Numbered from the stretch's first letter, positions 1-14,938 are shown. The stretch is 14,938 nucleotides of DNA from Candidatus Auribacterota bacterium (GCA_023136205.1 JAGLRQ010000056.1:1-14938); one strand, 5' to 3'. Program-made: numbers and translations. Notes: generated by a model not told the origin, from the sequence alone.

Positions 1-481
1 TTAAATTGGAAACACGCCTGGAATCGTACACATCAAAATTAACCGGTGTCTTATCGTAAAGATTTTGAAAGTGTTCAAAGGTTATTTCAAGATTTTTTAA
101 TACGCCTTCACGAATAGCAATTGAGGGTACAACAATTACGAACTTTTTAAATCCGTATTTTTTATTCAGCTCGTAAATAGTGCGGAGATATACATAAGTT
201 TTTCCGGTTCCTGTTTCCATTTCAATGGAAAAATTCATTCCGTCCAGTTTTTCAGTAGTGGTCAAATCATTCTTTTTTTGGATTTCCAGAATATTTTTAA
301 GAATCTGTTCTTCGCTTATTTCCAACTGATTGCCGACACCACCGTCCTGAAGCATGTAATTTTCACTACTTATCGAAAAACTGAAATCGCCCTGGTTTAA
401 AGGCTGTCCTTCAAATATATCGACAATGGAGTTTATCGCATCGTGTTGAAATAGCTGGTTTGGGTCAAAGTGGAGTTTCAA
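1..481 (-). CDS. res: Type III restriction enzyme Res subunit (SF2 helicase-nuclease); N-terminal 160 codons only, gene continues past the left window edge
   Basis: I translated the minus strand from TTG at 481..479: (M)KLHFDPNQLFQHDAINSIVDIFEGQPLNQGDF...MNFSIEMETGTGKTYVYLRTIYELNKKYGFKKFVIVVPSIAIREGVLKNLEITFEHFQNLYDKTPVNFDVYDSRRVSNL. The frame stays open to position 2. Walker A (METGTGKT) lies at 197..220. The N-terminal KLxFDxNQ..Q.DAI...V..F.GQP string and EMETGTGKTYVYLRTI are what I recognise from type III Res (ResIII/COG3587) proteins. It is absent from the ORF track because it runs off the edge. Confidence 0.85.
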   Translation of the reverse strand, partial: MKLHFDPNQLFQHDAINSIVDIFEGQPLNQGDFSFSISSENYMLQDGGVGNQLEISEEQILKNILEIQKKNDLTTTEKLDGMNFSIEMETGTGKTYVYLRTIYELNKKYGFKKFVIVVPSIAIREGVLKNLEITFEHFQNLYDKTPVNFDVYDSRRVSNL

Positions 482-1161
482 TTTGATTTCTCCAAATTTT
501 TTGAAAAATCAAACATTAAATGATACAGTTTTATTTCTTTTCCTTTAACAACTTTATGAGTCGAACAATAAGAATACTTAAATTTTTTAATAAAATTAAC
601 AGGTTTAAGGATTTTTTTTGTATTTGCTTTTTTGAAATTATTTTTTAATAACTTGTTAATGTTTTTAATATTATCAGGGATGTGCATTTGTTCAACAATA
701 AAGCCGATCATACCATTTATACCTTTAGGTGTTAAATATTTAGAGCTTACAAAACGCATAATACCATCCTTAATATAATCCCCATTAAGCCCTGAAGTTC
801 CTGACATATTATTATTATCCAGTCGTTTACACTCAATAATATAATAAGCATCTGTATTTTTAAGACTGTTTTGGCTAAGAATTTTTAAATCAACAAATCC
901 TGAACGCGCATGGTTAATATATTCGGCTGGTTCACAAACGATGTTGTAGTAAAAGTTAATTTTCTTACGCACCGCGTCGTCATTCAAATACTTAGAATAT
1001 AAATCATCACGTATCTTATTTTCGTCATTTGGAAGAACACGAACATTATCTTTTATCATCATCTTATAACAAGCTGTAATTCCAGAAAGAATACTTTGAA
1101 ATTCTATTTCATAAATTTCTGATGAGGGAATAAATAAAGAGGCGTCAAGTATTTTGTCCAT
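478..1161 (-). CDS. Stand-alone PD-(D/E)xK superfamily nuclease-like protein (Mrr-like catalytic core), 227 aa
   Basis: The track ORF is 478..1212. I prefer ATG 1161..1159 (MDKILDAS...) because AAAGAGGTG sits 4-6 nt upstream, whereas the upstream ATGs at 1212/1206/1194 have no such site. The candidate catalytic triad in GFVD-LKILSQNSLKNTDAYYII-ECK-RLD is D91 (889..891), E110 and K112 (826..828), with E77 as a possible first acidic residue. This has the spacing and hydrophobic beta-strand context typical of PD-(D/E)xK enzymes, and the ECKR core resembles the QCKR core of Mrr_cat. No other domain is recognisable. Confidence 0.6.
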   Translation of the reverse strand: MDKILDASLFIPSSEIYEIEFQSILSGITACYKMMIKDNVRVLPNDENKIRDDLYSKYLNDDAVRKKINFYYNIVCEPAEYINHARSGFVDLKILSQNSLKNTDAYYIIECKRLDNNNMSGTSGLNGDYIKDGIMRFVSSKYLTPKGINGMIGFIVEQMHIPDNIKNINKLLKNNFKKANTKKILKPVNFIKKFKYSYCSTHKVVKGKEIKLYHLMFDFSKNLEKSN

Positions 1162-4100
1162 AATACACCTCTTTGCCGGCTTTAAGAATCGCATCCATAA
1201 TTTCATCGACATCTAGATAGGCAATTGCTTTATGCCAGAGTTTTTTTTCATTTGGTTTTATGATATAAAAACCCTTTTTTTCAAAACCGCGAATATCTTT
1301 TTGAACAAACAGGGATTCCGTAACTTTTACGGTACCCAATGATATAATTCTACGCAAAAACTCTTTATTTTTCTTTTCTTTCGGTACAATTAATTGTTTA
1401 TCAGAGGAATTATTTGACACAACCTTAAAAAATACTCCAACAATATTGTTTGTGTGCCATATTTCCGCTTTAAGATGTTTTTCTTTAAATGAATTTTCAA
1501 AACGGGAAAGAAATATCTTTATATATTCTTTTAATAACTTATTGCTAAAAGGAATTGGAGAAAAAAGTTTTTCATATCCCTTGTGCCTCATAATTAGCGG
1601 AATTGTAATATTAATGGCATAATCAACAAGGGCAAGTTCCTGTTTATTTAAATCAAAACTTTTAAATATTTCCTCATTAAGCTGATTTACAAGTTTCTGC
1701 TTTTTTGATTCTATTGTTATTGTGGAAACTTGGGAATTTAATGGCTTTTGTTCTTCTCTGTAAAGACGTTCGGCAATATCTTCAATTTGTTTTACTATTT
1801 TTTCAATTTCAAAATTATCAATATATGGAAATCCCCATTTTTCTTTATCATTCACTTGTTGTTCTATCATGATTCCGACAGTAGAACTTTTTAAAAGAAT
1901 AAAATATGAAAATAAAGATGAATACAATAACCCTGCTAATTTATAATAATTAAGTTCCTTATTGTTCCCTACTGCTTTAATAGACGTTACTTTATCTGTA
2001 AATAATATTTTTCTTTCCAAAGAGATTACTGGAACTGACCTTAAACAAACATCAACAGTTTCCTTTAACAGCAAAACAGGGGGAGTAAAAACTTCTTCCA
2101 CAATCTTTTCATTTTCACGATAAATATATCCAACACACTTTTCAGTCCATTTTTCAAGTTGTGGAATGATAAAGAATGGTTTAATTTGCCCACGTTTATT
2201 TATGTCTAAAAAATCCCATCCAATTAATTCTTTAACATTAACTTTTTTCTTTCCATCTTTTCTTTTTAACCCTTGTTTAACTAAATAATTGTTTTTGTCA
2301 TCAATAATGTTCTCTATAGTTTTATAATCCTTTTTCAATCTACTAATAAAATTAAAATCTAAATAACTACCATAAACCAGCACTTTCCAGAGCCAGTCAT
2401 ACTTCATAAGCCTTTTTTGGACCACTCTTTTAATATCCGTATTTTGTAGAACAAATATCTTAAACAAAGAAAAAAGGCGGTTTGGTTTTAAACAAAGGTG
2501 AATTAATTCGTTTGAAGCCGTATCTTTACCGTATGAGTATCTGAAAAAGAGAATTGCGGCAGGTGCGATGGCTTTATCATTTGATTTATCAAAAATCTCT
2601 CTTCTTCCCGGAGCTAATTCAAAGACTTTATCAATAAAGAAATTATATAAAAAATATTTTCTAAATTTCTCCGCATTGAGATTATATAAGGTCTTACTGG
2701 AAACAATTAAAGCGCATTTTGTCTTCTCACTGCTAAAATCGCTAGTTCTTAAAAGGAAAGCTTGCGCTATTTCCTTATTGCTAGTTACACATTCATAACC
2801 ATTATCCTTTTTGTTAGATTCTTTTTGTTTGCGAGTCGTAATGTATTGCAGAAAGGGGTTATCCTGAGATGCTCCGCGTTTCCACGGTGGATTACCGAGA
2901 ATAAAATCAAAATTGTTTTTCCTAAAAAGTGAATTGTATTTTGCATTAGTATCAAAAAAATCAGCTGTATGAAAATTGCTATTTTTCATTAAATTAGGAA
3001 ATTTAAAATCTTCAATATCTTTAGGTTCCTGATAATCAAGCAATGCCAGATAAACGGAAAAAATAGCCACATTAACGGCATCCTTATCTTTGTCAATTCC
3101 AAAGATATTGTTTTCTGCAAGTTGTTTTAAAATGCGTTTAGTAATCTTATTATTGTTCAGGTCCTTATACCTTTCAACAATTCGTCTTAACGCTTCAACT
3201 AGAAAAATGCCTGAGCCACATGCAGGGTCGAGAACTTTACAATTATATTGTTCAGAGTTTTCTTGAAAATATTTTTCGACAGTCTCTGAAAGAATATAAT
3301 CAACAAGAAATTTTGGTGTATAATACGCTCCTTTTTCTGCCTGATTTTCTTTACCAATAAAGTGCTCATACACATTGCTAATAAATTCCACAGGAATTAT
3401 AGAAAAATTATATATATCAAATAGTGATAATTGGCCACTGGATAGTTGTGTTCCCATTAGCAAGTTTTTAAGAACAGAGAATGCTTTTTTGGGAATCTCT
3501 TTTAGCTTGTTATCATTCCGAAGAAATGCTTCGCCGTTAAATTGTCTTCTGAGATATTTGAAGAATTCTATCAGTTTTGCCTTATTATCAAAAAGGTCGC
3601 AAAATTCATTGTTTGTCCATTTTCGCGATTGTCCATCAAATTTAATTCTTACACCACGGTCTATCAAATAGCGGACAAATATGCATTTCCCAATAAGTGC
3701 GTTTGCCAAAGAATCTTTGGTACTATAGTCATTGATGAGACTATCGCGGGCATCCTGGATATTTTCAAGAAGATAAGAATCAACTCGATTCTGCTGTTTA
3801 AGTTTGGCTTGATATTGTTCTAAAGATTTTCCTGTAACAAGCTCGAAATAAGAAAAATTATTAAGGTTTTTACTGTCCTCCAATTTATCTAAAGCAGATT
3901 TATCTTTTAGATAGGAGAATCCATTATATATCTCTATGGAATCGGCTTCATTTATTATGACAATTGGAGTTTCATTGAAATTCCAGATAGCCTTAAAAAG
4001 TTTCTGTTTGTTTAGCGGTGAATCGTAAAATAGAATCAAAGGTTTTTTATCAAAGCAAAAAAAAGCTTCTGGTTTAAGTTTTTTGTCTATTAAATCTTCC

Positions 4101-4201
4101 AACCGTTTCGGTAATTTGCCTTTCCATTGCTCCCCTTTAACGACACAAAGGCCATTCTCATGCGTCATATTTAACTTTTTATAAATTTCTTTTAAGCCCA
4201 T
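1145..4201 (-). CDS. Large gamma-class N6-adenine DNA methyltransferase (Eco57I/type IIG-like architecture), 1018 aa, with ~270-aa N-terminal and ~450-aa C-terminal non-catalytic regions
   Basis: Motifs occur in gamma order. The pre-motif is IPVEFISNVYEHFIG...KGAYYTPKFLVDYI (aa 269-303). Motif I is VLDPACGSGIFL (aa 323-334, nt 3200..3235). Then comes IFGIDKDKDAVNVA. Motif IV is ILGNPPW (aa 434-440, GNPPW at nt 2882..2896). The ATG at 4201 lies 3 nt after the mod stop. The C-terminal half (aa ~560-1018) is presumably the target-recognition region. In the N-terminal ~120 aa (..KPLILFYDSP..IWNFNETPIVIINEADSIEIYNGF..) I can see no D...ExK signature. Confidence 0.85.
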   Translation of the reverse strand: MGLKEIYKKLNMTHENGLCVVKGEQWKGKLPKRLEDLIDKKLKPEAFFCFDKKPLILFYDSPLNKQKLFKAIWNFNETPIVIINEADSIEIYNGFSYLKDKSALDKLEDSKNLNNFSYFELVTGKSLEQYQAKLKQQNRVDSYLLENIQDARDSLINDYSTKDSLANALIGKCIFVRYLIDRGVRIKFDGQSRKWTNNEFCDLFDNKAKLIEFFKYLRRQFNGEAFLRNDNKLKEIPKKAFSVLKNLLMGTQLSSGQLSLFDIYNFSIIPVEFISNVYEHFIGKENQAEKGAYYTPKFLVDYILSETVEKYFQENSEQYNCKVLDPACGSGIFLVEALRRIVERYKDLNNNKITKRILKQLAENNIFGIDKDKDAVNVAIFSVYLALLDYQEPKDIEDFKFPNLMKNSNFHTADFFDTNAKYNSLFRKNNFDFILGNPPWKRGASQDNPFLQYITTRKQKESNKKDNGYECVTSNKEIAQAFLLRTSDFSSEKTKCALIVSSKTLYNLNAEKFRKYFLYNFFIDKVFELAPGRREIFDKSNDKAIAPAAILFFRYSYGKDTASNELIHLCLKPNRLFSLFKIFVLQNTDIKRVVQKRLMKYDWLWKVLVYGSYLDFNFISRLKKDYKTIENIIDDKNNYLVKQGLKRKDGKKKVNVKELIGWDFLDINKRGQIKPFFIIPQLEKWTEKCVGYIYRENEKIVEEVFTPPVLLLKETVDVCLRSVPVISLERKILFTDKVTSIKAVGNNKELNYYKLAGLLYSSLFSYFILLKSSTVGIMIEQQVNDKEKWGFPYIDNFEIEKIVKQIEDIAERLYREEQKPLNSQVSTITIESKKQKLVNQLNEEIFKSFDLNKQELALVDYAINITIPLIMRHKGYEKLFSPIPFSNKLLKEYIKIFLSRFENSFKEKHLKAEIWHTNNIVGVFFKVVSNNSSDKQLIVPKEKKNKEFLRRIISLGTVKVTESLFVQKDIRGFEKKGFYIIKPNEKKLWHKAIAYLDVDEIMDAILKAGKEVYYGQNT

Positions 4202-4204
4202 GTC

Positions 4205-6061
4205 TCACACCGCCTTAAATTCAATCTCCGCATCTTTCATCTGCAATGCGGTATTGGTTTTTAATTGGTCATTCTTGTTAAATAGACGATCAAGTGTGAT
4301 TACTTTCTGAGGTTTTACACCAATAACCGTTTCAATGATTTTCTTATCAACCTTCTCAAGGATTAAAGCAATTTCATTGTTATTTACAAGATCAAACCCA
4401 CTCTTTTTTTCAATCTTTGCGGTAAGAGGAATCCCAGATTTTAAAAGCAGTTCGTAAAGGACATCTTCTGTCTTTGAGTTTTCATCCAAAGATTCAAGGT
4501 GTTGTTGTAATTGCTCTACAAGCTGTTCCTCGTTTTCAATTTTTGTCCGCCATATTTTAAAATTTGATTCTTGTAATTTAAATACCTTAAACCCCAAGTC
4601 CTGTTTATCGGCGTTGCCATCCAAATCAAGTTTGCCTCCCTGTTCTTCGTTGATTTTTTTAATTACACGGCGAATGCGCTCTTTGCCAATTTCGGAAATT
4701 GTTTTGTATCCGGCTTTAAAAGCTTCGGATTTTTCATCGCATTTTTCAGGAAGTTGAACCATTATGAATTTACGATTACCGCCATCTTTTTTGTTGAGGT
4801 CAAGAACAGCGTGGGCAGTTGTTGCAGAGCCAGAAAAGAAATCGAGGATTATGTCATCATTATTGGTTCCTATATGAAGGGCTCTTTTTAACAATCTTAC
4901 AGGTTTGGGTGTATCAAAATATGATTCTCCATCAAATATTTTTTTTACTTCTTGTTGTGCTTCTTGATTGTGGCCTACATCGGTATATTTCCATATAGTT
5001 AAAGGAACTATACCATCCTGAACATCTGACAAAAACCTTTTTAATTGGGGAATAGAGTTCCCATCTTTCCCAAACCAAATACAATTATTCCCAACTAGTT
5101 CTTCAAATTTTTCTTTTGACACTCCCCAACTCCTCCCTTTAGGAGGAAACACTTTTCTGCCACTAGGTGTAATTATTTCATAAATATCTTTTTCAGTAAT
5201 CCTTTTTGCAGATAAATCGCTCGTTTTCCAGACACCTCTTGGGTCATTATCAGGATTTTTATATCTTGCATTAGCCTCCTCTGAACGTGATAAGAGATAT
5301 GGTCGCCAAATTTCCTTATTTTTTGAATAAATCAACATATAATCATGATTGTCCGAAAACCATTTCGCATCATTTTGTGGTGAATATTTTTTCTCCCAGA
5401 TTATATTTGCAACAAAGTTTTCCTCCCCAAATACCTCATTCATCAAAAGCCGCAAATTATGTACTTCATTATCATCAATACTCACAAAAATCACTCCGTC
5501 ATCCCGCAGTAAATTTCTCGCAAGAAACAATCTCGGATACATCATGGAAAGCCAATTGCTATGATAATGCCCGCTGTCCCTGCTGTTTTTTCTAAACAAA
5601 CCTTCTCTTGTCATAAATCCGGTTTCATCTTTATCGCCGATTCTGTTTAAATATTCTTCTTTGGTTTCTGAAAATTTATCGGGATAAATAAAATTGTCAT
5701 TACCTGTGTTGTATGGCGGATCAATATATATCATTTTGATTTTGCCAAAATAGGATTTTTGTAACACTTTTAGAACCTCAAGATTTTCTCCTTCAATAAA
5801 AATATTTCCGGTTGCATCAAAATTAATAGATTCTTCTTTTGCGGGAACAAGGGTCGCAGTAGTGGAAGATTGCAAAACACGAAAAGCATCGGATTTCCCC
5901 GCCCAGTTCAAAACATAACGTTCATTTTTGAATTCTATATCATCACCCAAAGCGGCTTTCAGCTTTTCCCAGTCAATCTTGTCTTCGGTAAATGCTTCGG
6001 GAATAATTTCTTTGAGCTTATGCAGTTTTTCGTCAGTTATGTTAAGTGATTTCCCATCCAT
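4205..6061 (-). CDS. mod: Type III restriction-modification Mod subunit (beta-class N6-adenine DNA methyltransferase), 618 aa
   Basis: Motif IV is MIYIDPPYNTG (DPPY at nt 5711..5722). About 290 aa downstream is motif I, IILDFFSGSATTAHAV (nt 4817..4843). This is the circularly permuted IV..TRD..I order of beta-class/type III Mod enzymes. Also typical are the N-terminal LNWAGK..A and ENLEVLK strings and the C-terminal FKVFKL tail. Confidence 0.9.
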   Translation of the reverse strand: MDGKSLNITDEKLHKLKEIIPEAFTEDKIDWEKLKAALGDDIEFKNERYVLNWAGKSDAFRVLQSSTTATLVPAKEESINFDATGNIFIEGENLEVLKVLQKSYFGKIKMIYIDPPYNTGNDNFIYPDKFSETKEEYLNRIGDKDETGFMTREGLFRKNSRDSGHYHSNWLSMMYPRLFLARNLLRDDGVIFVSIDDNEVHNLRLLMNEVFGEENFVANIIWEKKYSPQNDAKWFSDNHDYMLIYSKNKEIWRPYLLSRSEEANARYKNPDNDPRGVWKTSDLSAKRITEKDIYEIITPSGRKVFPPKGRSWGVSKEKFEELVGNNCIWFGKDGNSIPQLKRFLSDVQDGIVPLTIWKYTDVGHNQEAQQEVKKIFDGESYFDTPKPVRLLKRALHIGTNNDDIILDFFSGSATTAHAVLDLNKKDGGNRKFIMVQLPEKCDEKSEAFKAGYKTISEIGKERIRRVIKKINEEQGGKLDLDGNADKQDLGFKVFKLQESNFKIWRTKIENEEQLVEQLQQHLESLDENSKTEDVLYELLLKSGIPLTAKIEKKSGFDLVNNNEIALILEKVDKKIIETVIGVKPQKVITLDRLFNKNDQLKTNTALQMKDAEIEFKAV

Positions 6062-6155
6062 ATTGCTTTTATCCCTTTATTCTTTTCCTCTGCCCTCAAT
6101 TAGTAAAATTTCGTATTTTTTGCTAACCGGTTTATTAATCTAAAATCTAAAGCCT

Positions 6156-6184
6156 ATTCTATCTTTTCTTTGGCTTTTCTTCAA
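6156..6184 (-). promoter_or_regulatory. Candidate sigma70-type promoter for the mod-MTase-nuclease-res operon
   Basis: The minus strand reads TTGAAG (6184..6179), a 17-nt spacer, then TAGAAT (6161..6156). This is ~95 nt upstream of the mod ATG. A weak purine-rich AAGGGA lies ~11 nt before the ATG. The call rests on sequence pattern only, and the host promoter consensus is unknown. Confidence 0.4.
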
Positions 6185-6206
6185 CTGTTTGCTGTAAATG
6201 TATTAG

Positions 6207-6260
6207 AAAATAGGGACAGTCCACCCGCTCGCTGCGCTCGCTTGGGACTTTCCCTATTTT
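6207..6260 (-). terminator. Intrinsic (potentially bidirectional) terminator hairpin immediately downstream of murJ
   Basis: AAAATAGGGACAGTCC (6207..6222) pairs with GGACTTTCCCTATTTT (6245..6260). That gives a 16-bp stem with one C/T mismatch around a 22-nt GC-rich loop (ACCCGCTCGCTGCGCTCGCTTG). An A-tract and a T-tract flank the G/C core, so a U-run follows the stem on either strand. It begins 7 nt after the murJ TAA (6267..6269). Confidence 0.55.
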
Positions 6261-6266
6261 CCGGAT

Positions 6267-7880
6267 TTAAGCATTTCTTCTACTGGCAAACGCCTTTATT
6301 ATTTGATCAAGTTCAACGATTCCCATCAAACGGCATAGAACAAAAACCAATAACCCGGCAATGCCCATTGGGACAAACACGTTTATGAACTTTAAGAGAA
6401 TCCCATCCCTTCCGGCTTCAAAGTACAAAAGCAGCCTGTATGAAAGATATGTAACAACAAACATTACAGCAGAAACAACAGCTGTTTTTATAAAGTTTGA
6501 GAAAATTTCCCTTCCCCGTATCCTTCCTATTTTTGTTCTTAATTTATAAGCCAGCAGGTACAGGCTTATCACCGCGGAAAGAGATGTGGCAACAGCAAGC
6601 CCTACATAGCCGAAAGGCACAACAAGAATCAGATTTAAAATAACATTAGCCAGAAGGGCGATACAACTGATTTTAACCGGTGTCACCATATCTTTTAGAG
6701 AGTAAAAGGCCCTGACAAAGAGCATAGAGCCTCCATACGCGAACATACCTGCTGAATATGCCACAAGGGAATAATAAGTAGGCATTGCTGAATCATTCGC
6801 GGCAAATTTCCCGTAGCCAAACAACAAGTCTATTACCGGAAGGCCCAAAGCTATAAGGCCCGCCGTGGAACAAACCATAATAAAGAGTACCTGCCTCAAA
6901 GAATATGACAGTGAATTCTTCAATCCTTCCATATCGTTTTCAGCAGCCAATCCTGACATATGTGAAAATGCAACGGTGGAAATGGACACAGCAAAAACCC
7001 CCAGGGGAAACTGATAAAGCCTTGTAGACACATATAAATAGGAAATAGGCCCGTCACCCAGCCACGACGCCAGAAACTGGTCAACCAGCAGATTAATCTG
7101 TGTAATACCCATTCCCCAAATCGCGGGGCTCATTAACAATAAAACCTTTTTAACCGCGGGATGTTTAAATGTCCGGGAAAATGTAAATCTTAAATTCTTC
7201 ATCTTAAAAGCCGGTAGTTGTATCAACACCTGCAGAAGACTTCCAACCAGAACACCAATTGCAAGACCATAAACCATGTTCTGCTGCAGCGGGCCCATAA
7301 TGGGACATATAAAAAGAGCCGCGAGTATAAATACTATATTCTGCACAGCAGGGCCCAGCGCGGGTAAAAAGAAATGCCTGGCCGAATTAAGTAACCCCGC
7401 GAATAAAGCCGCAATTCCTATAAAAAGAATGAACGGGAACATCATTCTGGTAAGGCCTATGGCCAAATCAAGCTTTTCCGGATTTTTTAAAAACCCCATG
7501 GTAAAAAAACGCACTATTAGAGGGCTCAACAACATACCCATAATGGACACAACGAACAATATGCAGAAAAAAGTAACAAGCAGCCCGCCGGCAAATTCAC
7601 TAACCTTCTTCGGCGGTTTCGTTTTCAGCCACCTGGTAAAAACAGGTATAACACCGGCACTTAAAGCTCCCTCCGCGAAAAGGCGCCTTAAAGTAGATGG
7701 TATTCTAAGCGCCGCAAAAAAGGCATCGGTTACCCATGGGTCAAACATGGTAAGAACAAAGACTTCCCTTATCAAGCCCAGTATCCGGCTCAAAATCACA
7801 GCAAATCCTATAACGGCGGCCCCTCTGGTTATTTCAGGGTTTCCGGATTTTTTCAATTCTCTATTACTGTCAGACAGCAT
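6267..7880 (-). CDS. murJ: Lipid II flippase MurJ (MviN family), 537 aa
   Basis: The N-terminus ...AAVIGFAVILSRILGLIREVFVLTMFDPWVTDAFFAALRIPSTLRRLFAEGALSAGVIPVF is the conserved MurJ/MviN signature. The protein is polytopic and hydrophobic throughout, and ~14 TM segments are plausible. Confidence 0.9.
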   Translation of the reverse strand: MLSDSNRELKKSGNPEITRGAAVIGFAVILSRILGLIREVFVLTMFDPWVTDAFFAALRIPSTLRRLFAEGALSAGVIPVFTRWLKTKPPKKVSEFAGGLLVTFFCILFVVSIMGMLLSPLIVRFFTMGFLKNPEKLDLAIGLTRMMFPFILFIGIAALFAGLLNSARHFFLPALGPAVQNIVFILAALFICPIMGPLQQNMVYGLAIGVLVGSLLQVLIQLPAFKMKNLRFTFSRTFKHPAVKKVLLLMSPAIWGMGITQINLLVDQFLASWLGDGPISYLYVSTRLYQFPLGVFAVSISTVAFSHMSGLAAENDMEGLKNSLSYSLRQVLFIMVCSTAGLIALGLPVIDLLFGYGKFAANDSAMPTYYSLVAYSAGMFAYGGSMLFVRAFYSLKDMVTPVKISCIALLANVILNLILVVPFGYVGLAVATSLSAVISLYLLAYKLRTKIGRIRGREIFSNFIKTAVVSAVMFVVTYLSYRLLLYFEAGRDGILLKFINVFVPMGIAGLLVFVLCRLMGIVELDQIIKAFASRRNA

Positions 7881-7909
7881 CTACAACACCCTTCAGGTTT
7901 AAAATATAC

Positions 7910-7938
7910 TTGACATCAGAGGGCTCTTCTATTAGATT
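7910..7938 (+). promoter_or_regulatory. Candidate sigma70-type promoter for rpsT
   Basis: TTGACA (7910..7915), a 17-nt spacer, then TAGATT (7933..7938). GGAGG at 7976..7980 lies 10 nt before the ATG at 7991. Confidence 0.5.
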
Positions 7939-7990
7939 ACCATATCTGAAAACCAGGTCTTATTCTATAATTTATGGAGGTTAGGTAATT

Positions 7991-8245
7991 ATGCCCAATA
8001 TTAAATCAGCTAAAAAAAGAATGCGCGGCAGCGAGCAAAAACGACTTAGAAACAAGGCAACAATATCCGAGATAAAAACTTATTCTTCCAGGATAATAAA
8101 ACTTTGCGAGGAAGGCAAGAAAGATGAAGCCCGCCCTGCTTTTAAGAAAGCTTCTTCTGTTATAGATAAAGCATCCCTTAAAGGAATTGTTCATAAAAAC
8201 ACCGCGGCAAGAAAAAAATCAAAACTGGCCAAATTGCTGAAATAA
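7991..8245 (+). CDS. rpsT: 30S ribosomal protein S20
   Basis: MPNIKSAKKRMRGSEQKRLRNKA... is the canonical S20 N-terminus. The protein is 84 aa and basic, with a strong upstream SD. Confidence 0.95.
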   Translation: MPNIKSAKKRMRGSEQKRLRNKATISEIKTYSSRIIKLCEEGKKDEARPAFKKASSVIDKASLKGIVHKNTAARKKSKLAKLLK

Positions 8246-8263
8246 ACAACTTAAACCGGACTT

Positions 8264-9280
8264 TCAAATTCTTATACGTTTTAAATTACTATTCTCAATT
8301 TTTTCTCGCGCGCAAAGTTCCAGTATAAATTTTTCCATCAAAGCCTGGCTCGCGTTATCGGGGCTAAGCCTCATCTTTACCATGGCGGAAGCAAACGCCT
8401 GGATTTTATCTAATAAACTCTCAATTTCAAATTTCGCCGCTGACTCTTTAATCTTTTTAAGCCTCCAGGCTCCTGAAGCCAATCCCAGTCTTTGCGCGAT
8501 TTTTACATCCGACATCTTCCCGCGAACCATCAATTTAACAAGGGCAGCCTCAACAAGCTGTTTATGAAGAACATATAAAAGCTTTGTTATCGCACTAATA
8601 TCCATATTCATTTTCCTGAAAATGCCTATCGCTTTATCCTCTGCCCCCATCACAATATTGTTTACCAGACCCCAGAAATTACCCCCCTCTGAAGAAACGA
8701 TTTCCAAAACATCCTGTTCCGAAATCTCCTTTGAATCACAGGTATATACAAGCAATTTCTCTATTTCTGTTTTCAAAAGTTCGGGTTCTTCTCCTGTCAT
8801 TTCAGAAAATACCGCGGCAGAATTAGAGCTTATCTTTCTCCCGTTACTTTCCACAACTTTTTTTATCCATGGAACAATATCCCATGATTTTAACCGGGGA
8901 CAATGTTTTATAAACTCTTTAGAAATTGATTTGAGCGAACCGGCAATAACAGGAGAAAGCTTCAAAAATACAAATACGATACAATTTGAAGCAAAAGGAT
9001 TTTTAAGATAAGAAATAATTTTTTTAAGAGAGGCCGCGCCAAATTTTTCCGAGCCCCTTACAATTATAAGCCTTTGACTCCCAAAAAGTGATACCGTTGA
9101 AACCTCGTCAATAATCCTCTCTATACTGGTATCCTCTGAATGAAAAACGCTAACTTCTTCGCCGCCTGTATCATAAAAAAGTTTTTTTATGGATCGGATA
9201 ATTTCTTCTGACCGGAGAAAATTGCCCCCATAAACCAGATAAGAAGGCTGGAGACTTTGACTTTTTCGGTTAGACTGCAT
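8264..9280 (-). CDS. holA: DNA polymerase III delta subunit
   Basis: The protein is 338 aa. The N-terminal block YLVYGGNFLRSEEIIRSIKK...VSLFGSQRLIIVRG is typical of HolA. It sits directly downstream of lptE, the conserved lptE-holA synteny of diderms, and its ATG is 3 nt after the lptE stop. Confidence 0.8.
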   Translation of the reverse strand: MQSNRKSQSLQPSYLVYGGNFLRSEEIIRSIKKLFYDTGGEEVSVFHSEDTSIERIIDEVSTVSLFGSQRLIIVRGSEKFGAASLKKIISYLKNPFASNCIVFVFLKLSPVIAGSLKSISKEFIKHCPRLKSWDIVPWIKKVVESNGRKISSNSAAVFSEMTGEEPELLKTEIEKLLVYTCDSKEISEQDVLEIVSSEGGNFWGLVNNIVMGAEDKAIGIFRKMNMDISAITKLLYVLHKQLVEAALVKLMVRGKMSDVKIAQRLGLASGAWRLKKIKESAAKFEIESLLDKIQAFASAMVKMRLSPDNASQALMEKFILELCAREKIENSNLKRIRI

Positions 9281-9283
9281 CTC

Positions 9284-9856
9284 TCACCAGCGCTCAACAA
9301 CTTTTTGCAGTATTTTTTTTGACACCCGGTCAGCGGCACGCCACATCGCGGAACGCTCGGTTTCATAAATATCGGAACTGGAGATAACAGCATTCTGCTC
9401 TCTCTCTAAAGGAATCGACCTTTTCTTAGCAGCAGGGAGATCGGTTTCGAGAAAGTATCCGTTTTCCGCTTTAATTTTTACATCCCTGAAAATATATTCT
9501 CTCTGTTCCTGATCCCAAAGATCAAACACCACAGCTAATTCAAACAGGTATTCAGTAACAGTCCGAAAGTCATCTCCGGTGCTTCTTCCTCCAACTCTTT
9601 TCCAGCTGATTATTTTGCCTGTAAGTAAAAGGTCCGCTTTATCCTTATTTATCACTTCGAGAGACCCATCCAGTTGAAATTCTTTTATAACAGAATTTGT
9701 AATATAAACCTCTACGTTATCCTGAAAAGTTTCATTCCTAAAAACAGGGATAGCCATAGTTTTATAACCTTCCAGAACAATAGAACCGGTTTTATATCCG
9801 CATCCTCCTGCACTTGCTAAAACTAAAACCGCAAAAAAAGCTAAAATCTTGTTCAT
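9284..9856 (-). CDS. lptE: LPS-assembly lipoprotein LptE-like
   Basis: The signal peptide plus lipobox is MNKILAFFAVLVLASAGG-C-GYK. The size (190 aa) fits, as does the position immediately upstream of holA. Its ATG overlaps the upstream stop (ATGA at 9856..9853). The family call rests on synteny plus the lipoprotein signal rather than a strong motif. Confidence 0.6.
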   Translation of the reverse strand: MNKILAFFAVLVLASAGGCGYKTGSIVLEGYKTMAIPVFRNETFQDNVEVYITNSVIKEFQLDGSLEVINKDKADLLLTGKIISWKRVGGRSTGDDFRTVTEYLFELAVVFDLWDQEQREYIFRDVKIKAENGYFLETDLPAAKKRSIPLEREQNAVISSSDIYETERSAMWRAADRVSKKILQKVVERW

Positions 9857-11115
9857 TTATCAACTTCCTCAATAGTAATTGCTTCTATTTTGGTTTCCTT
9901 GGCCTGATCATCAATTTTCTCAACTGCTCTTTCCGGTTCCGGCTGTTCGGGGAGTTCTTCCTCTCCAGGGCTCAAGATTTTTTTAATCGGGTCGGTCGCA
10001 ATTTTAACCGGCTTGGCTGCCGTATCCACCACACCTTCAACAGTTCCGGTTATTATATCAGCTGCTTCATCCAACGGCATTGTTATAGTGCCGCCAGGCT
10101 CTTTGCCGCCGTCCATCAATAAATTCTCCTTTTCAATCCGTTTTTCCTTAGCCTCCTGGGTTTCCTCCAAATTCCTGAATCTTAATGAAGAAATCTTCTT
10201 CTTCGCTTTTATAGTCCACTTGGAATCAGGATACTGGTTTATTAGGAGCTCGTAGTAAACCTTTGAAGACACAAAATTACCCGCTTTTTCATAAAAGACC
10301 CCGTTCATGAACAACTCTTCCGCTTTCCGGTCTTCCAATTCCGCAAGAAGCTTTACAGCTTCTTCTTTCTTCTCACTTTCCGGATATTTCCTTTTAAACT
10401 GTAAAAATTCCTTTATCGCGTTATCAGTCGCCTCCTGATCATATTGCGGCCCCTTTGATTTTGTATACCATGTAAGGGCTACCTGGAACTTGGCATTATC
10501 AGAAAAATCCGATTTAGGATAATTTTCAATCACTTTTTCAAAAGCTTCAACCGCTTCATTGTAATCCCTAACTTTCTGGTAAGCAAAACCCGCCTTGAGC
10601 TGGGCTTTGGGAGCAAGCTCAGAATACGGCGCCTGTTCGACAATAAATTCAAAAATCTCTGAGGCTTTATCTATCGCGGATAAAACTTTAAATTTCCAGA
10701 GATACCTTTTCCCCCCGGAAAGAAAATCATTTCCTATCCTATAAATCTTATCTAAAATTTCATCTACCTGCCCATAAGAAGGATATTTTTCAAGGATAGA
10801 CTTATACGCGAGATAAGCTTCATAATACTGGCCCCTCTTTTCATAAACCCTTCCAAGAGCCATCTGCCCCTCCGGGGCAAAAGCCGAAGCAGGAAAAAAT
10901 TTCGCGACTTTTTTATATTCATACGCGGCTTTTTCATATTCTCTTTTGTTCTCAAGAGACCTTGCATGCTCCATTTGAAGTTTAGCTGTTTTCTTGGGTT
11001 CCCACTTCGGATTTACGAATTTGCCGGATTCAGGAGTCCATATCCACAGCGCGGGAGTCAGCGTCGGCGCCAAAACGGCTAAAAAAAATAGTATAACCCC
11101 CATAAACTTTGCCAT
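9853..11115 (-). CDS. BamD/YfiO-like TPR outer-membrane assembly protein with acidic C-terminal extension
   Basis: TPR-like repeats of the YfiO type are present: ...YEKAAYEYKKVAKFFPASAFAPEGQMALGRVYEKRGQYYEAYLAYKSILEKYPSY..., ...VEQAPYSELAPKAQLKAGFAYQKVRDYNEAVEAFEKVIENYPKS..., ...YYELLINQYPDSKW.... I place the start at ATG 11115 (MAKFMGVILFF...) because GGAG lies 9 nt upstream. The track ORF extends to 11151. The N-terminus is hydrophobic but has no lipobox Cys. Confidence 0.6.
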   Translation of the reverse strand: MAKFMGVILFFLAVLAPTLTPALWIWTPESGKFVNPKWEPKKTAKLQMEHARSLENKREYEKAAYEYKKVAKFFPASAFAPEGQMALGRVYEKRGQYYEAYLAYKSILEKYPSYGQVDEILDKIYRIGNDFLSGGKRYLWKFKVLSAIDKASEIFEFIVEQAPYSELAPKAQLKAGFAYQKVRDYNEAVEAFEKVIENYPKSDFSDNAKFQVALTWYTKSKGPQYDQEATDNAIKEFLQFKRKYPESEKKEEAVKLLAELEDRKAEELFMNGVFYEKAGNFVSSKVYYELLINQYPDSKWTIKAKKKISSLRFRNLEETQEAKEKRIEKENLLMDGGKEPGGTITMPLDEAADIITGTVEGVVDTAAKPVKIATDPIKKILSPGEEELPEQPEPERAVEKIDDQAKETKIEAITIEEVDK

Positions 11116-11212
11116 AGTCTTTGTCTCCAAACCTTGTTCCGGATTTAACATATCTATTCATGTTCCTTCATAGCTGAATATTTTCTTACGCGTTTACCAT
11201 AAAAATCAGTTT

Positions 11213-11241
11213 ATATTATCGGAGCACATTTTAAGTGTCAA
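11213..11241 (-). promoter_or_regulatory. Candidate sigma70-type promoter for the bamD-like/lptE/holA operon
   Basis: The minus strand reads TTGACA (11241..11236), a 17-nt spacer, then TAATAT (11218..11213). This is ~98 nt upstream of ATG 11115. Confidence 0.45.
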
Positions 11242-11245
11242 TAAG

Positions 11246-11369
11246 ATAATCCCAGATTTTGCATTAGCAAAATCTGCCCAAAGGGCGAACCCAAGAAAAT
11301 CCTGACGGGATTTTGTTGAAAAGGTTCGGGTAATCCCATATGTGTTTCTAATGCAAAATCCGGGATAAT
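11246..11369. repeat. 124-bp element bounded by 22-bp imperfect terminal inverted repeats, with nested internal hairpins (MITE-like or structured RNA)
   Basis: IR-L is ATAATCCCAGATTTTGCATTAG (11246..11267). The reverse complement of IR-R (11348..11369) is ATTATCCCGGATTTTGCATTAG, a 20/22 match. There is an internal perfect 10-bp hairpin, CAGATTTTGC-ATTA-GCAAAATCTG (11253..11276). There is also a nested stem, CGAACC (11286..11291)/GGTTCG (11323..11328), which encloses AAAATCC/GGATTTT. Confidence 0.55.
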
Positions 11370-11389
11370 TGTCGGACATTACTTTTTAT

Positions 11390-12352
11390 TCATGCTTTTC
11401 CATGCTCAAAAACCTGCCAGGCACATCCCATTAGGCCGCCATCGTTACCCAGCTTCGCGGGAACAATCTTTAATCTCTCGGAATAAATCTGCATCACCCT
11501 CTCCTTCAGAGTCTTTCTCACGGGCTTGAAAATAAGTCCTCCGGCTTTTGCCACCCCCCCGCCAATAACAACAATTTCCGGGTCAAGCAGGTTTACTACC
11601 CCCGCCAGGCAAACTCCCAGATATTCGCCTGTTTCATCCCATATTTGTTTCGCAAGAGCATCACCACTTTTCGCGGCATTAGCAATGTCAAGCGGGGTTA
11701 TTTTATGGTACTTCCCTTTAAACCACCGCGCCAAAATAGATTTATTATGTCTCTTTAGATATCCAACTGTTCTTTTAACTATATAAGAATTACCCACATA
11801 TGATTCCACACAAGCCTTACCCCCGCAGGCACACGCGGGGCCCTCTACGTTAACAGGCATATGCCCAATTTCCCCCCCGGCCATAAAACTTCCGTGATAG
11901 AGCTTATTTTCCAGGATTAAACCGCCGCCAACCCCTGTCCCCAGTGTAATACAGATTGCGTTTCTCGCACCCTTAGCTGCCCCATAAGCATATTCCCCTA
12001 ACGCCATCATATTGGCATCATTATCTACATAAACAGGTTTTCCCATCCTTTTTTTAAACTCTTTCGCAAGATGGACACTATCCCATCCCTTGATATTAAC
12101 AAGAGTATGTATTATCCCTTTTTTGTGATCGATATGTCCCGGAGCGCCAATGCCAACCCCCACAAAATTTTTTCCGGCAACACTATTCTCTTTCAATAAA
12201 TTTTTTATAACCGAAACCGATTTTTCAACCCAGGAATCAAATTTATTAAATTTCTGTGTTTCAAAATGCGTCCTGCCTGCCATCTTACCCCTCTTTGATA
12301 TAACGGCAACTTTTGTATAAGTCCCCCCAAGGTCGATACCTACCGCATACAT
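11390..12352 (-). CDS. glk: ROK-family glucokinase (sugar kinase, no N-terminal HTH)
   Basis: The ATPase phosphate-1 motif MYAVGIDLGGTYTKVAV is at the extreme N-terminus. The ROK signature region is ...GTGVGGGLILENKLYHGSFMAGGEIGHMPV.... The Zn-binding cysteine cluster is PACACGGKACVESY. GGAGG lies 7 nt upstream of the ATG. Confidence 0.85.
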   Translation of the reverse strand: MYAVGIDLGGTYTKVAVISKRGKMAGRTHFETQKFNKFDSWVEKSVSVIKNLLKENSVAGKNFVGVGIGAPGHIDHKKGIIHTLVNIKGWDSVHLAKEFKKRMGKPVYVDNDANMMALGEYAYGAAKGARNAICITLGTGVGGGLILENKLYHGSFMAGGEIGHMPVNVEGPACACGGKACVESYVGNSYIVKRTVGYLKRHNKSILARWFKGKYHKITPLDIANAAKSGDALAKQIWDETGEYLGVCLAGVVNLLDPEIVVIGGGVAKAGGLIFKPVRKTLKERVMQIYSERLKIVPAKLGNDGGLMGCAWQVFEHGKA

Positions 12353-12375
12353 ACAATTCCTCCATACTTTACTTT

Positions 12376-12467
12376 GGTTACTAGGTTATTGAGTTATTAG
12401 GTTATTAAGTTAGCAGATTAATTATTCAATACTTAGTAACTCAATAACGCAGTAACTTAATAACTAA
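12376..12467. repeat. Intergenic array of four copies of a 12-15-nt motif (GTTATT[G/A]AGTTA), two direct and two inverted, with 16-nt periodicity
   Basis: The forward copies are TAGGTTATTGAGTTA (12382..12396) and TAGGTTATTAAGTTA (12398..12412). The reverse copies are TAACTCAATAAC (12437..12448) and TAACTTAATAAC (12453..12464). A partial GGTTAC lies at 12376..12381. The array sits between the tatD stop (12482) and the glk start (12352). Confidence 0.6.
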
Positions 12468-12481
12468 TTTTCATTTCTAAT

Positions 12482-13258
12482 TTATTCTAATCCAAAAACC
12501 TTGTTAGCATTTAAATAAACTCTCTCAGCAAATACTGTTTTGCTTTCCCCTCTGAGTTCAGCAATATAATCAGTTATCCCCGCAACATTTGACGGCTCAT
12601 TCATCTTACCCCTCTTCCATTGTGGAGACAGGTACGGGCAATCGGTTTCTGTGAGTATCGTCGTATCTTTCAATGATACAGCTGCTAAACGGACATCATC
12701 TGATTTAGGAAATGTAATATTACCGGAAAATGAGATATAACAACCCATATTTTCGAGTGCCAGGGCATGGTCTTTTGTCCCCGAAAAACAATGCATTATA
12801 ACGGGAGAGTTATCAACAGAATGCGTTTTAAGCATTTTTACAACATCCTCATAAGCATCCCTGCAATGAACACAGACTGGAAGACTTCTCGATGCGGCAT
12901 AATCGAGAAAATATTTAAACGTTTTTTTTTGTTCTTCTTTAGGCACAACCTCTCTATAATAATCCAGCCCGACTTCTCCAACAGCTATAAACTCTTTTCT
13001 TGAAAACAGATCATCCAGCATTTTCCCCGAGATCTCACACAGATGTTTCGCAGAATATGGATGAAGCCCAAACGAAAAATATATTTTAACCCGGCTTTTT
13101 GAGATATCCAGTGACTGGGTTTCTCGTAATTCTTGTAAATCTGCTGAAATAGATAAAATCTTTTCAACACCATTAAAACGCGCTGACTGAAGAACATCCG
13201 TAAACTTCTGCTTAAGCTGTTTGGAAACCATATGCGCGTGAGTGTCAAAATATGGCAC
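12482..13258 (-). CDS. tatD: TatD-family metal-dependent hydrolase/DNase
   Basis: The protein starts at GTG (13258..13256). (M)PYFDTHAHM is the TatD HxH metal motif. Later blocks are ...AVGEVGLDYY..., ...PVCVHCRDA..., ...VIMHCFSG... and ...LTETDCPYL.... It is 258 aa. Confidence 0.9.
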   Translation of the reverse strand: MPYFDTHAHMVSKQLKQKFTDVLQSARFNGVEKILSISADLQELRETQSLDISKSRVKIYFSFGLHPYSAKHLCEISGKMLDDLFSRKEFIAVGEVGLDYYREVVPKEEQKKTFKYFLDYAASRSLPVCVHCRDAYEDVVKMLKTHSVDNSPVIMHCFSGTKDHALALENMGCYISFSGNITFPKSDDVRLAAVSLKDTTILTETDCPYLSPQWKRGKMNEPSNVAGITDYIAELRGESKTVFAERVYLNANKVFGLE

Positions 13259-13261
13259 AGT

Positions 13262-14584
13262 CTATTTTCCCCTGAGAGCATCGTACCACTGTTTGGAAAG
13301 ATCTTTCACAGACTCGAATTTCTCCCCATAGACTTCATTAAAAGCCTCATTAAAAGACTTCCCTTCAACCACAAGTTTGGCAAACTTGCACAAAGCAAGA
13401 TCTCCGTCATCACCATAACCATCTACGAGAATCTCTACTAATTTTGCGGACTGCGCGACAAACCTTCGGAAATCCTTCTCACTTTTGGGATATTTTTCGC
13501 GCCCGATAAGATCATTGAACCTGAAACCTTTCTTTGCCTTTATATCTTTCTTTAATCTCTCCATGCCATACATTGGAGTGCCTGAATAGTATGAAGCTGT
13601 TCCGGCAGTCAGCCACAACGCGGCATTTTCATTATCAAGAAATTCTTTCCAGAGAAGTTCTGCTAAAAAATATCCGAAAAGTTCAGCAGCAGTCAAAATA
13701 AACTCCTCCCTGGCTGTATAGCTAAGATTTGATAATCCCGTATCTCCCCAGGGCGCAATAAATATTTCTCTCTGTTTGCTTACTGAAAAACCATACGGCG
13801 TGCTGTCTGAAGGGCCGGCAATCGACTTGGTCTGTGACCAGTTTCTTCCTTCATCGAAAATATACACAGCGCATTTTGTTTGCCAGTTAACATAATCGTC
13901 AATTTTCATTTCGGTTATATATGTACTGTAACTTCTGTCTGCCTTATTTTTAATATTTCTACCTATTTTTTCATCTTTAGACTTGCCAATTTTATAATAA
14001 ATCGTGAAATACCGCGTATCCTCCATCTTGTCATTGACTTTAGTCAGCAGATAAGATCTTGCGGCTTTTGATTCGCCCTCCGCGTCCTTCTCCATTTTTT
14101 CATGAATTTCTTCGGTTACAACAACCTTCTCAATCTTATTTGCCTCTTCTTCAGCTTTCTTCTTTTCTTCCATAAGTTGTTTCTTTTCGGCAATTAATCG
14201 CTTTAACTCATCTTTTGTGTGCCATTTTCCTTTATATTTTACCAATCCCTTATTTTTCTGCTGAGCTTCAAATTTCTTTTTCGCTCCGGTTTGGATTTCT
14301 TCCTTCCTTCTTTTTAGTTCGGTTACTTTTTCTTCGGAACTTTTCTGATTTTCCCACTGCTGCCTCAGGTTAGTATTTTCTTTTTTAGAGGCTTTGACAA
14401 TATTTTCAACCCTTTCGCGTGTCAGAGTAACTTTTCCATAAGCTGTTTCATAAGTAACATCACTATCAGACTCAAAAAGAACTATACACTTGACAGTTTC
14501 ACCTGTTTTAAGAGTTATATCATCAGAATAAAGGTTAAATGACATTAAAAAAATAACAAAGAATAACCCCGTTCTTTTAACCAT
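13262..14584 (-). CDS. Secreted hypothetical protein (signal peptide, K/E-rich coiled-coil linker, uncharacterised C-terminal domain), 440 aa
   Basis: A strong SD, AAGGAGGG, lies 6 nt upstream of the ATG. The N-terminus MVKRTGLFFVIFLMSFNLYS is signal-like. Residues ~65-165 are very K/E-rich (EEKVTELKRRKEEIQ...KKQLMEEKKKAEEEANKIEK). I recognise no catalytic motif and see no HExxH. Confidence 0.75.
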   Translation of the reverse strand: MVKRTGLFFVIFLMSFNLYSDDITLKTGETVKCIVLFESDSDVTYETAYGKVTLTRERVENIVKASKKENTNLRQQWENQKSSEEKVTELKRRKEEIQTGAKKKFEAQQKNKGLVKYKGKWHTKDELKRLIAEKKQLMEEKKKAEEEANKIEKVVVTEEIHEKMEKDAEGESKAARSYLLTKVNDKMEDTRYFTIYYKIGKSKDEKIGRNIKNKADRSYSTYITEMKIDDYVNWQTKCAVYIFDEGRNWSQTKSIAGPSDSTPYGFSVSKQREIFIAPWGDTGLSNLSYTAREEFILTAAELFGYFLAELLWKEFLDNENAALWLTAGTASYYSGTPMYGMERLKKDIKAKKGFRFNDLIGREKYPKSEKDFRRFVAQSAKLVEILVDGYGDDGDLALCKFAKLVVEGKSFNEAFNEVYGEKFESVKDLSKQWYDALRGK

Positions 14585-14632
14585 TGTTTTCCCTCCTTTG
14601 TGTTTCAGTCAAAAATTTCCCAAAACATATGA

Positions 14633-14938
14633 CTATTTTATATCTTTTCGTGGGAAAAGCATGCCTGGAGCAACTAATTCTCTGCCTTTTTCCAGAATTT
14701 CCCATTCATTCACTTTTGCAAATGCTTTTTCCTTTATATCTTCATCCATACCAAGAGCCCTCCATACCTTTTCGGAAGAAACCGGCATAAAAGGATAGCT
14801 ATACGATGATATAATTCTTAAACTTTCCAGGAGGTTCAGGAGAACACATCCTAACCGCGCTGCCGCTAAAGGAGTTTTATTTAACCTCCACGGCTTTGTT
14901 TCTTCAACATACCGGTTTGCTTTAGCAACAATCTCCCA
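14633..14938 (-). CDS. metG: Methionyl-tRNA synthetase, C-terminal 101 codons (gene begins beyond the right window edge)
   Basis: My own minus-strand translation is WEIVAKANRYVEETKPWRLNKTPLAAARLGCVLLNLLESLRIISSYSYPFMPVSSEKVWRALGMDE...GMLFPRKDIK*, with TAG at 14635..14633. The N.Y.....PW.L.K block, the L.P.MP block and the terminal LFPR are the anticodon-binding-domain end of MetRS. Proximity of metG to tatD is a common synteny. Confidence 0.8.
   Translation of the reverse strand, partial: WEIVAKANRYVEETKPWRLNKTPLAAARLGCVLLNLLESLRIISSYSYPFMPVSSEKVWRALGMDEDIKEKAFAKVNEWEILEKGRELVAPGMLFPRKDIK

Follow-up and report, generated by a model that had tools for sequence, protein, structure and literature searches.

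Canonical restriction-modification (R-M) systems of type III, such as EcoP1I and EcoP15I, hemi-methylate one strand of their target and cleave DNA in an ATP-dependent reaction that needs two inversely oriented unmethylated sites. For R-M operons of type I it has long been noted that PrrC, Rlo, and RhuM genes may be embedded among the host genes (e.g., EcoprrI; Anantharaman et al., 2013, PMC3710099), and insertions of this kind have been described as embedded defense systems, open to 'guilt-by-embedding', for which the hosts named are Hma, BREX, DISARM, and type I R-M (Payne, Hughes, Fineran, and Jackson, bioRxiv 10.1101/2024.01.29.577857). In the text of that preprint, 62.7% of Hma loci are reported to be occupied and 96.7% of the embedded genes to be co-oriented; type III R-M is not named there as a host. 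A recent R-M review mentions nothing inserted between the type III genes mod and res, and in the literature, our coverage of which was incomplete so that absence is weak evidence, we found no prior description of cargo at this position. Here we describe such a locus in a stretch of 14,938 nucleotides (nt) from Candidatus Auribacterota bacterium (GCA_023136205.1, JAGLRQ010000056.1:1-14938; hereinafter the window, meaning the whole stretch analyzed). We conclude with good confidence that its R-M operon holds two autonomous systems, namely a type III host and a guest two-gene module placed between mod and res. The four genes, with sizes in amino acids (aa), are:

mod, 6061..4205, minus strand: type III beta-class N6-adenine DNA methyltransferase (MTase) of 618 aa, the specificity and modification subunit of the host
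large MTase (embedded gene 1), 4201..1145, minus strand: 1018 aa, gamma-class N6-adenine MTase fused to a target-recognition domain (TRD), MmeI/PglX/BpuSI-like
small protein (embedded gene 2), 1161..478, minus strand: 227-aa stand-alone nuclease candidate of the PD-(D/E)xK type, with D91 and E110-C-K112
res 5' end, 481..1, minus strand: first 160 codons from a TTG start, type III restriction subunit; the gene leaves the window, and the full protein has 874 aa

Direct reading of the junctions bore out what an earlier note, made from the sequence alone, had described as four co-directional and tightly packed genes. The mod stop codon (TGA, 4207..4205) is followed by GAC and then, after these 3 nt, by the ATG (4201..4199) of the 1018-aa open reading frame (ORF); the end of this ORF at 1145 overlaps by 17 nt the 227-aa ORF, whose ATG lies at 1161 and is preceded at a distance of 5 nt by the Shine-Dalgarno sequence AAGAGGTG inside the MTase gene; and the TGA of the nuclease candidate shares a TTGA (481..478) with the TTG start of res. 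The same packing recurs in 18 four-gene loci from several phyla and is thus not a chance feature of the window: across these, the gap from mod to the MTase gene ranges from -29 to +26 nt (the exception being L043, which has extra cargo in between), the MTase/nuclease overlap is kept, and in 10 of the 18 the nuclease gene and res overlap by 4 nt. The adjacency of mod and res expected of a two-gene type III unit accordingly fails in the window, where two foreign genes spanning 3.7 kb separate them; this is a matter of gene layout and not of the enzyme, and is no argument against type III chemistry.

The host shows the features of its type throughout. Mod matches the PADLOC model MTase_III (PDLC03634) over its full length (719 bits) as well as Pfam N6_N4_Mtase; its DPPY motif (aa 114) precedes FFSGS (aa 408), the order of the beta class, and a central variable region at about aa 250-400 corresponds to the TRD. 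In the large MTase DPACGSG (aa 325) precedes GNPPW (aa 436), the gamma order, such that the operon does carry adenine MTases of two permutation classes, as the earlier note had stated. The Res fragment in the window (aa 1-160) is recognized by PADLOC REase_III (187 bits) and by Pfam ResIII/DEAD. The remainder of the gene, whose recovery the earlier note had recommended, was found in locus L001, which lies on the same contig (res at 10681-13305, with uvrC next): the 874-aa protein contains ResIII, DEAD, and RE_endonuc (PF19778) domains, and its GTGKT (K94), VDEPQN, PD, and VAETK motifs are all intact, the C-terminal PD...VAETK nuclease motif included. Judged from its sequence, the host is a complete type III system, in which Mod gives specificity and methylation and Res is a superfamily 2 (SF2) ATPase with its own C-terminal PD-ExK nuclease.

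This bears directly on a second explanation, also raised in the earlier note, by which all four genes form one composite restriction enzyme: the Res motor would have the large MTase-TRD protein and the small nuclease as accessory subunits, which would confer two specificities or take over cleavage. The translational coupling of the four genes, conserved in 18 loci across phyla, is what one would expect of such an enzyme. However, the Res nuclease and the Mod catalytic motifs are always intact. The PD...ETK motif of Res is invariant in all 16 aligned Res proteins from four-gene loci, which implies that cleavage has not been outsourced, and a motif-by-motif re-check of the 13 complete four-gene loci found DPPY, GTGKT, VDEPQN, PD...ETK, NPPW, and D...ECK intact in every one.

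The surroundings of related res genes argue against the composite enzyme from another side. Metagenome contigs were scanned with res as the anchor, which introduces no bias as to cargo; this provided 80 loci, the best of more than 593 matches, and in 66 of these both mod and res were visible. The two genes are adjacent in 30 of the 66, whereas co-directional cargo lies between them in the other 36; occupancy is 12/15 among the Res proteins closest to that of the window versus 5/16 among the most distant. The window's own pair fills the gap in a single locus (L118), with a distant analog in L102, and 65 of the 66 have mod and res without it. The cargo found instead comprises SIR2 with HerA; a CBASS-type cyclase with a 260-aa partner; an Old-family nuclease; HEC-01A/B (AAA_21+DUF4276); NsnA (GmrSD_N) with an AAA_15/DUF3696 ATPase; a Ppl-like ATPase with an AlbA_2/HATPase_c_4 protein; RhuM (five loci); Schlafen/AlbA_2 (six loci); YhcG/DUF1016; Dcm with HATPase_c_3; an HSDR_N-NACHT-like ATPase; DUF6978 with DUF1828/1829; DUF6119; and a PLD nuclease. 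All 54 cargo ORFs of at least 100 aa are co-directional with the host, and the commonest junction between cargo and res is a 4-nt overlap. The mod-res gap of this type III clade is therefore a general slot for co-directional defense cargo. As unrelated cargo is equally tightly coupled, the coupling that had suggested one machine is a generic property of the slot: many unrelated, self-sufficient systems occupy the same place with the same tight junctions, and mod and res persist alone in 30 loci.

Two observations from these loci stand by themselves. A family of 260-300-aa proteins with no match in Pfam or PADLOC recurs in the slot (L124:9210-9992, L125:2786-3697, and L128:4579-5358), following a CBASS-type cyclase in one case and a 449-aa coiled-coil-like protein in another; it may represent an unrecognized effector. 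Further, the Res closest to that of the window (89% identity; L088:8922-12625) has no mod within 10 kb upstream; a 360-aa Peptidase_S8-like ORF comes before its gene and overlaps it by 4 nt, and farther upstream the genes lie on the opposite strand. This may be a rearranged or decaying locus.

The complementary view comes from the guest. The neighborhood survey that the earlier note had proposed was carried out by scanning one genome per species with an alignment of the small protein, which yielded 80 loci. The MTase gene is immediately upstream of the small gene, and overlaps it, in every locus for which upstream sequence is available. The four-gene arrangement is complete in 12 loci and cut by a contig end in five more, giving 17 of the 80 in which the pair is nested in mod/res; in seven (L010, L013, L020, L026, L036, L038, and L061) the pair abuts only remnants of mod and/or res; and in 37, with both flanks visible, there is no trace of either gene, the remaining loci being not assessable in this respect. 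In L007 and L019, for example, the pair is flanked by two housekeeping genes, an mgsA-like one and crcB. The MTase and the small protein thus constitute an obligate, autonomous pair.

That 24 of about 61 assessable loci have the pair nested in this type III clade, or beside its remnants, could again be counted in favor of a composite enzyme, as could the correlation of MTase and Res identities across the four-gene loci (Spearman 0.81). This correlation, however, arises mainly from a split of the loci into two groups (L001-L018 versus L027-L074), and the 37 loci with the pair alone speak to the contrary. Moreover, the Res proteins of L043, L073, and L074 are 90-93% identical to one another while their nucleases are only 47-66%, and their MTases 62-78%, identical; near-identical Res proteins flanking such divergent partners indicate that the guest has changed independently of the host. 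In a neighbor-joining tree built from the pair, loci of the four-gene, remnant, and stand-alone kinds are intermingled: for example, L080, a pair alone, falls beside the nested L082, and L038, a remnant locus, beside the nested L074. Strict co-inheritance of the four genes was rejected on these two grounds, the divergent pairs beside near-identical Res and the interleaving in the tree. With close mod and res homologs often adjacent or separated by other cargo, the pair widespread on its own, the Res nuclease motif intact in all the aligned loci, and Res and the small nuclease not co-diverging, we consider a composite four-component enzyme very unlikely. The other possibility entertained in the earlier note, an MTase-nuclease module nested in a type III operon, is the one that the data support, as a single case of a slot occupied in 36 of 66 loci.

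The ends of the slot can be placed from material that recurs around the cargo:

mod 3' tail, 4291..4205, minus strand: last 28 codons, DRLFNKNDQLKTNTALQMKDAEIEFKAV followed by the stop; putative left boundary of the cargo slot
res 5' head, 481..173, minus strand: about 103 codons; putative right boundary of the cargo slot

Cargo is not always single. Between mod and res, the pair is accompanied by two AlbA_2 genes in L031, by HEC-01-like AAA_21+DUF4276 genes in L043, by a DUF1828 gene in L018, and by genes for an 887-aa ATPase and an AlbA_2/HATPase_c_4 protein in L004 and L008. In the last two a chimeric 133-aa ORF (L004:8684-9085, equivalent to L008:10684-11085) has res aa 1-103 followed in frame by the final 28 residues of Mod; its res part shares 89% DNA identity with the resident res, its Mod part is identical to the Mod tail of the same locus, and it lies after the nuclease gene with the second cargo directly next to it. 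This is the footprint expected from the joining of two mod-cargo-res units. The Mod tail NDQLKTNTxLQMKDAxIEFKxV is kept in Mod proteins beside unrelated cargo (L109, L096). Comparable scars are found elsewhere: in L010, L026, L036, L038, and L061 the pair lies directly next to C-terminal Mod remnants of 29-172 aa; N-terminal Res remnants (aa 1-54, 8-44, and 1-44) follow it directly in L010, L013, and L036; and a res fragment lies between cargo genes in L108. Cassettes bounded by the mod 3' tail and the res 5' head may hence be swapped and stacked, recombination between type III loci being the most probable mechanism.

Two further loci show partial hosts of other forms. In L020 only the last 68 codons of res (aa 807-874; L020:1902-2108) remain, about 280 nt downstream of the nuclease gene, which suggests that an internal deletion took nearly all of res. 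In L006 (4743-8930, equivalent to L010) the pair is flanked only by C-terminal mod and N-terminal res fragments and has as neighbors DUF499, DUF3780, and DUF1156 genes and an SNF2 helicase gene, a Hma-like set; this may be a cassette with type III scars now embedded in, or beside, another host system.

We turn to the guest proteins themselves. The 1018-aa protein is matched over its full length by the PADLOC model REase_MTase_IIG (PDLC03603, 894 bits) and by Pfam N6_Mtase, Eco57I, and MmeI_Mtase. Its AlphaFold2 (AF2) model has a predicted local distance difference test score (pLDDT) of 77, and Foldseek searches with this model recovered BrxX/PglX as the best match (E-value 2e-18), followed by CamA, BpuSI, DrdV, and MmeI. 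Variation within the protein is greatest in the TRD (about aa 650-900), which swaps independently of the remainder: between L080 and L082 the nuclease is 85% and the MTase core with the C-terminus 89% identical, and the TRD only 31%. Across 67 homologs the N-terminal 270 aa contain no conserved D...ExK, the conserved residues there being hydrophobic or part of WNFNE. A genuine type IIG enzyme, with the small protein as an additional nuclease, was consequently rejected, since this N-terminal domain lacks a conserved catalytic motif. At the other end, aa 952-1018 (the C-terminal 67 residues; window 1145-1345) are among the most conserved of the protein, with many invariant alignment columns, yet have a pLDDT below 50 in the monomer model and are predicted to be disordered in isolation. 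This combination marks them as a candidate docking segment, which in light of the model could fold on a binding partner, possibly the nuclease. Separately, two loci from Flavobacteriia (L037:6163-9996 and L066:6159-9989) have an MTase ORF of about 1277 aa that is some 260 aa longer at the N-terminus, its first 312 aa being devoid of a Pfam match; the excess could be a real extension or reflect an upstream in-frame start.

The 227-aa protein has no match in Pfam, PADLOC, or NCBIfam, and a search with its profile against PDB sequences gave nothing meaningful. It nevertheless belongs to a large family: 693 homologs were found at E-values of at most 0.001, with an informative name on none of the 120 listed, and at the same threshold 1107 representative clusters, the best 150 of which are all stand-alone proteins of about 210-240 aa. 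D91, E110, and K112 are invariant in 32 homologs. The AF2 model (pLDDT 89) shows the alpha-beta-beta-beta-alpha-beta topology of the PD-(D/E)xK core, and its top Foldseek matches in the PDB are the PD-(D/E)xK nucleases PspGI, Bax1, Card1, and SfsA, at non-significant E-values of 0.05-0.3. We therefore treat it as a candidate nuclease on the strength of the invariant D...ExK together with the confidently modeled topology. A divergent version of the pair also occurs between mod and res in L102 (3093-6780), with a 1032-aa Eco57I-like MTase (188 bits to that of the window) and a 202-aa protein. The latter is related to the small nuclease by hhalign (94% probability) and keeps the E-x-K; this divergent pair in the slot indicates that the two-gene design is broader than the family first sampled.

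These features also speak to the idea that the middle pair is no restriction system at all, the large protein being an orphan or BREX-like (PglX-type) MTase and the small one a regulator or DNA-binding accessory protein. It could draw on BrxX/PglX, a protein without a nuclease, being the closest structural match to the MTase, and on the small protein having neither a significant match to a solved nuclease nor a family model. Against this, D91, E110, and K112 are not only invariant but lie on the beta-beta-beta core of the canonical PD-(D/E)xK topology, even the distant L102 homolog retains E-x-K, no BREX partner genes are found in the window or in L001, and an obligate pairing of an MTase gene with a small gene in overlapping frames is typical of R-M. 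We regard a role outside restriction as extremely unlikely.

How the two guest proteins might work together is suggested by their patterns of divergence. Over all pairs of loci, nuclease identity correlates better with that of the MTase core (Spearman 0.56) than with that of the TRD (0.21). A nuclease that does not track the specificity domain of the MTase points to a specificity-less subunit of an MmeI/PglX-like protein as opposed to an ordinary type IIP enzyme. The label 'type II-like' used in the earlier note should be sharpened accordingly. In the account we favor, of a guest R-M module within a type III host, the first guest gene would encode an MmeI/PglX-like polypeptide combining a gamma-class adenine MTase with a swappable TRD, and the second a small PD-(D/E)xK nuclease, highly conserved and itself lacking specificity. 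The large protein would recruit the nuclease in trans, with its C-terminal 67 aa as the candidate docking site, making up a 'split type IIG/IIL' enzyme akin to MmeI or BpuSI but with its nuclease provided in trans. The guest genes would be co-transcribed and translationally coupled with those of the host. We found no description in the literature of an MmeI-like enzyme with a separate nuclease subunit, an absence that, given incomplete coverage, is weak evidence.

Several points weigh against this account. The Foldseek likeness of the small protein to known nucleases does not reach significance, and both its cleavage of DNA and its binding to the MTase are predictions from sequence. The N-terminal domain of the MTase was tested for conserved catalytic residues only. 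The slot statistics derive from 66 metagenome contigs among the 80 best matches and are no census. Finally, nesting in this type III clade (17 of the 80 pair loci) and remnants of it (seven more) together account for about 39% of the assessable loci, an association that leaves room for some functional synergy.

Such synergy is the core of a further explanation, a functionally coupled layered defense, in which the two systems are distinct enzymes but the host controls the guest or is backed up by it, the guest acting, for instance, when a phage inhibits the type III enzyme. Coupling of this sort has been documented for PrrC in type Ic R-M, where EcoprrI keeps it in check (PMC3710099), and, as cited in bioRxiv 10.1101/2024.01.29.577857, for BrxU, which complements BREX; the conserved co-orientation and coupling and the high frequency of association would agree with it. 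However, an MTase and TRD of its own mark the guest as a self-contained R-M system and not as a sensor of host inhibition, the pair is common outside type III loci, the sequences indicate no interaction surface, and Res and the nuclease do not co-diverge. We consider a layered defense unlikely, and retain the reading of two autonomous R-M systems in one operon. The wider proposition, that the type III operons of this clade are an undescribed class of embedding host, with a slot occupied in more than half of the loci and cassettes swapped and stacked, and that the guest represents an uncharacterized but widespread split type IIL/IIG R-M family with a 225-aa PD-ExK subunit, we would put at an even chance.

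The genomic setting of the island is as follows. Its GC content (window 1-6100) is 27-37%, compared with 37-48% in the housekeeping genes of window 6500-14938, which upstream of the island include murJ, rpsT, holA, lptE, a bamD-like gene, a ROK kinase gene, and tatD; in L001 the island sits between murJ and uvrC. The low GC content and this position are consistent with horizontal acquisition. One candidate control element precedes mod:

candidate sigma-70-like promoter (weak), 6184..6156, minus strand: TTGAAG-17-TAGAAT upstream of mod

This element matches the consensus at nine of 12 positions in AT-rich DNA, and promoter-like sites in the region are not enriched (27 observed versus 27.3 expected from shuffles); a single promoter for all four genes, as the earlier note had it, is possible. 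In the interval from the murJ end to the promoter region of mod lies a 17-nt inverted repeat (window 6206-6261; 94% complementary, with a 22-nt loop) that was missed by a simple terminator scan and is probably the murJ terminator. Two other ORFs in the window have no Pfam match: one of 440 aa (13262-14584, minus strand) and one of 208 aa (7276-7902, plus strand) antisense to murJ; the latter, which is called in place of murJ in the sister contig L002, is probably spurious.

Reading the locus as host plus guest prevents its mis-annotation as a new four-component enzyme. If the cargo frequency holds, the gaps between type III mod and res genes offer a 'guilt-by-embedding' hunting ground for new defense genes; among the slot cargo of no known function are the 260-aa partner of the CBASS-type cyclase, DUF6119, DUF6978 with DUF1828/1829, and proteins of 237 and 315 aa. 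Embedding may, as the scars suggest, come about through recombination in a simple way. As the small nuclease family, for all its 1107 representative clusters, has no family model, current annotation pipelines report its partner as a single-chain 'type IIG' enzyme and overlook the nuclease. A specificity-less nuclease acting in trans with a TRD-swappable MTase would, if true, be of interest to enzyme engineers.

Compared with described systems, the guest is closest to the single-chain type IIL/IIG enzymes MmeI, BpuSI, and DrdV and to PglX/BrxX of BREX. The 1018-aa protein has the same succession of an N-terminal domain, a helical spacer, a gamma N6-adenine MTase, and a TRD (Foldseek E-values 2e-18 to 3e-13), and its TRD is swappable. 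It differs from the type IIL/IIG enzymes in that the D...ExK is not in the N-terminal domain but on the separate, always adjoining 227-aa protein, and from BREX in that genes of the brxA/B/C/Z/L type are absent from the window and L001, the neighbors being mod, res, murJ, and uvrC. Multi-subunit type II systems provide another comparison: in BcgI (type IIB) the R and M functions share one chain and S is on another, and AhdI is of type IIH. BcgI and AhdI resemble the guest in placing cleavage and MTase/specificity functions on different polypeptides; the window's pair is divided otherwise than BcgI, with M and S on one chain and R alone on the other, and is not known to be related to either in sequence.

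The host shares with EcoP15I and EcoP1I the beta-class Mod with its central TRD, the SF2 motifs and C-terminal PD-ExK of Res, and the order of mod before res in one operon; it differs in that mod and res are 3.7 kb apart, separation being the commoner state in the window's clade (36/66 overall and 12/15 among the closest relatives). Like type I R-M operons with PrrC, Rlo, or RhuM (PMC3710099), it has an insertion inside an R-M operon, and the type III slot again holds RhuM, ABC-ATPase (AAA_21), and AlbA_2-type cargo. Here, however, the host is of type III, and the cargo in the window is a full R-M module and not an Abi-type effector held in check by its host.

The earlier note's remark that this gene order is no named defense system is literally true, but the locus falls under the published phenomenon of embedded defense, and its kind is thus already known. 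Set against the account of embedded defense systems (bioRxiv 10.1101/2024.01.29.577857), it agrees in having extra genes between those of a multi-gene, DNA-modification-based system, with diverse cargo; in co-orientation (96.7% there, 54/54 cargo ORFs in the type III slot); in guest and host each occurring without the other (the pair alone in 37 loci, mod-res without the pair in 65/66); and in the cargo families HEC-01 and GmrSD-like that both share, that account also including Septu/ABC-ATPase cargo. What appear to be new are type III as a frequent host with a single slot and recombination scars, and the split MmeI/PglX-like guest with its unmodeled nuclease family. The type III host differs from those described there in consisting of only two genes, and therefore having a single slot, and in the explicit scars, with the res 5' head fused to the mod 3' tail, that hint at how embedded cassettes come to be stacked.

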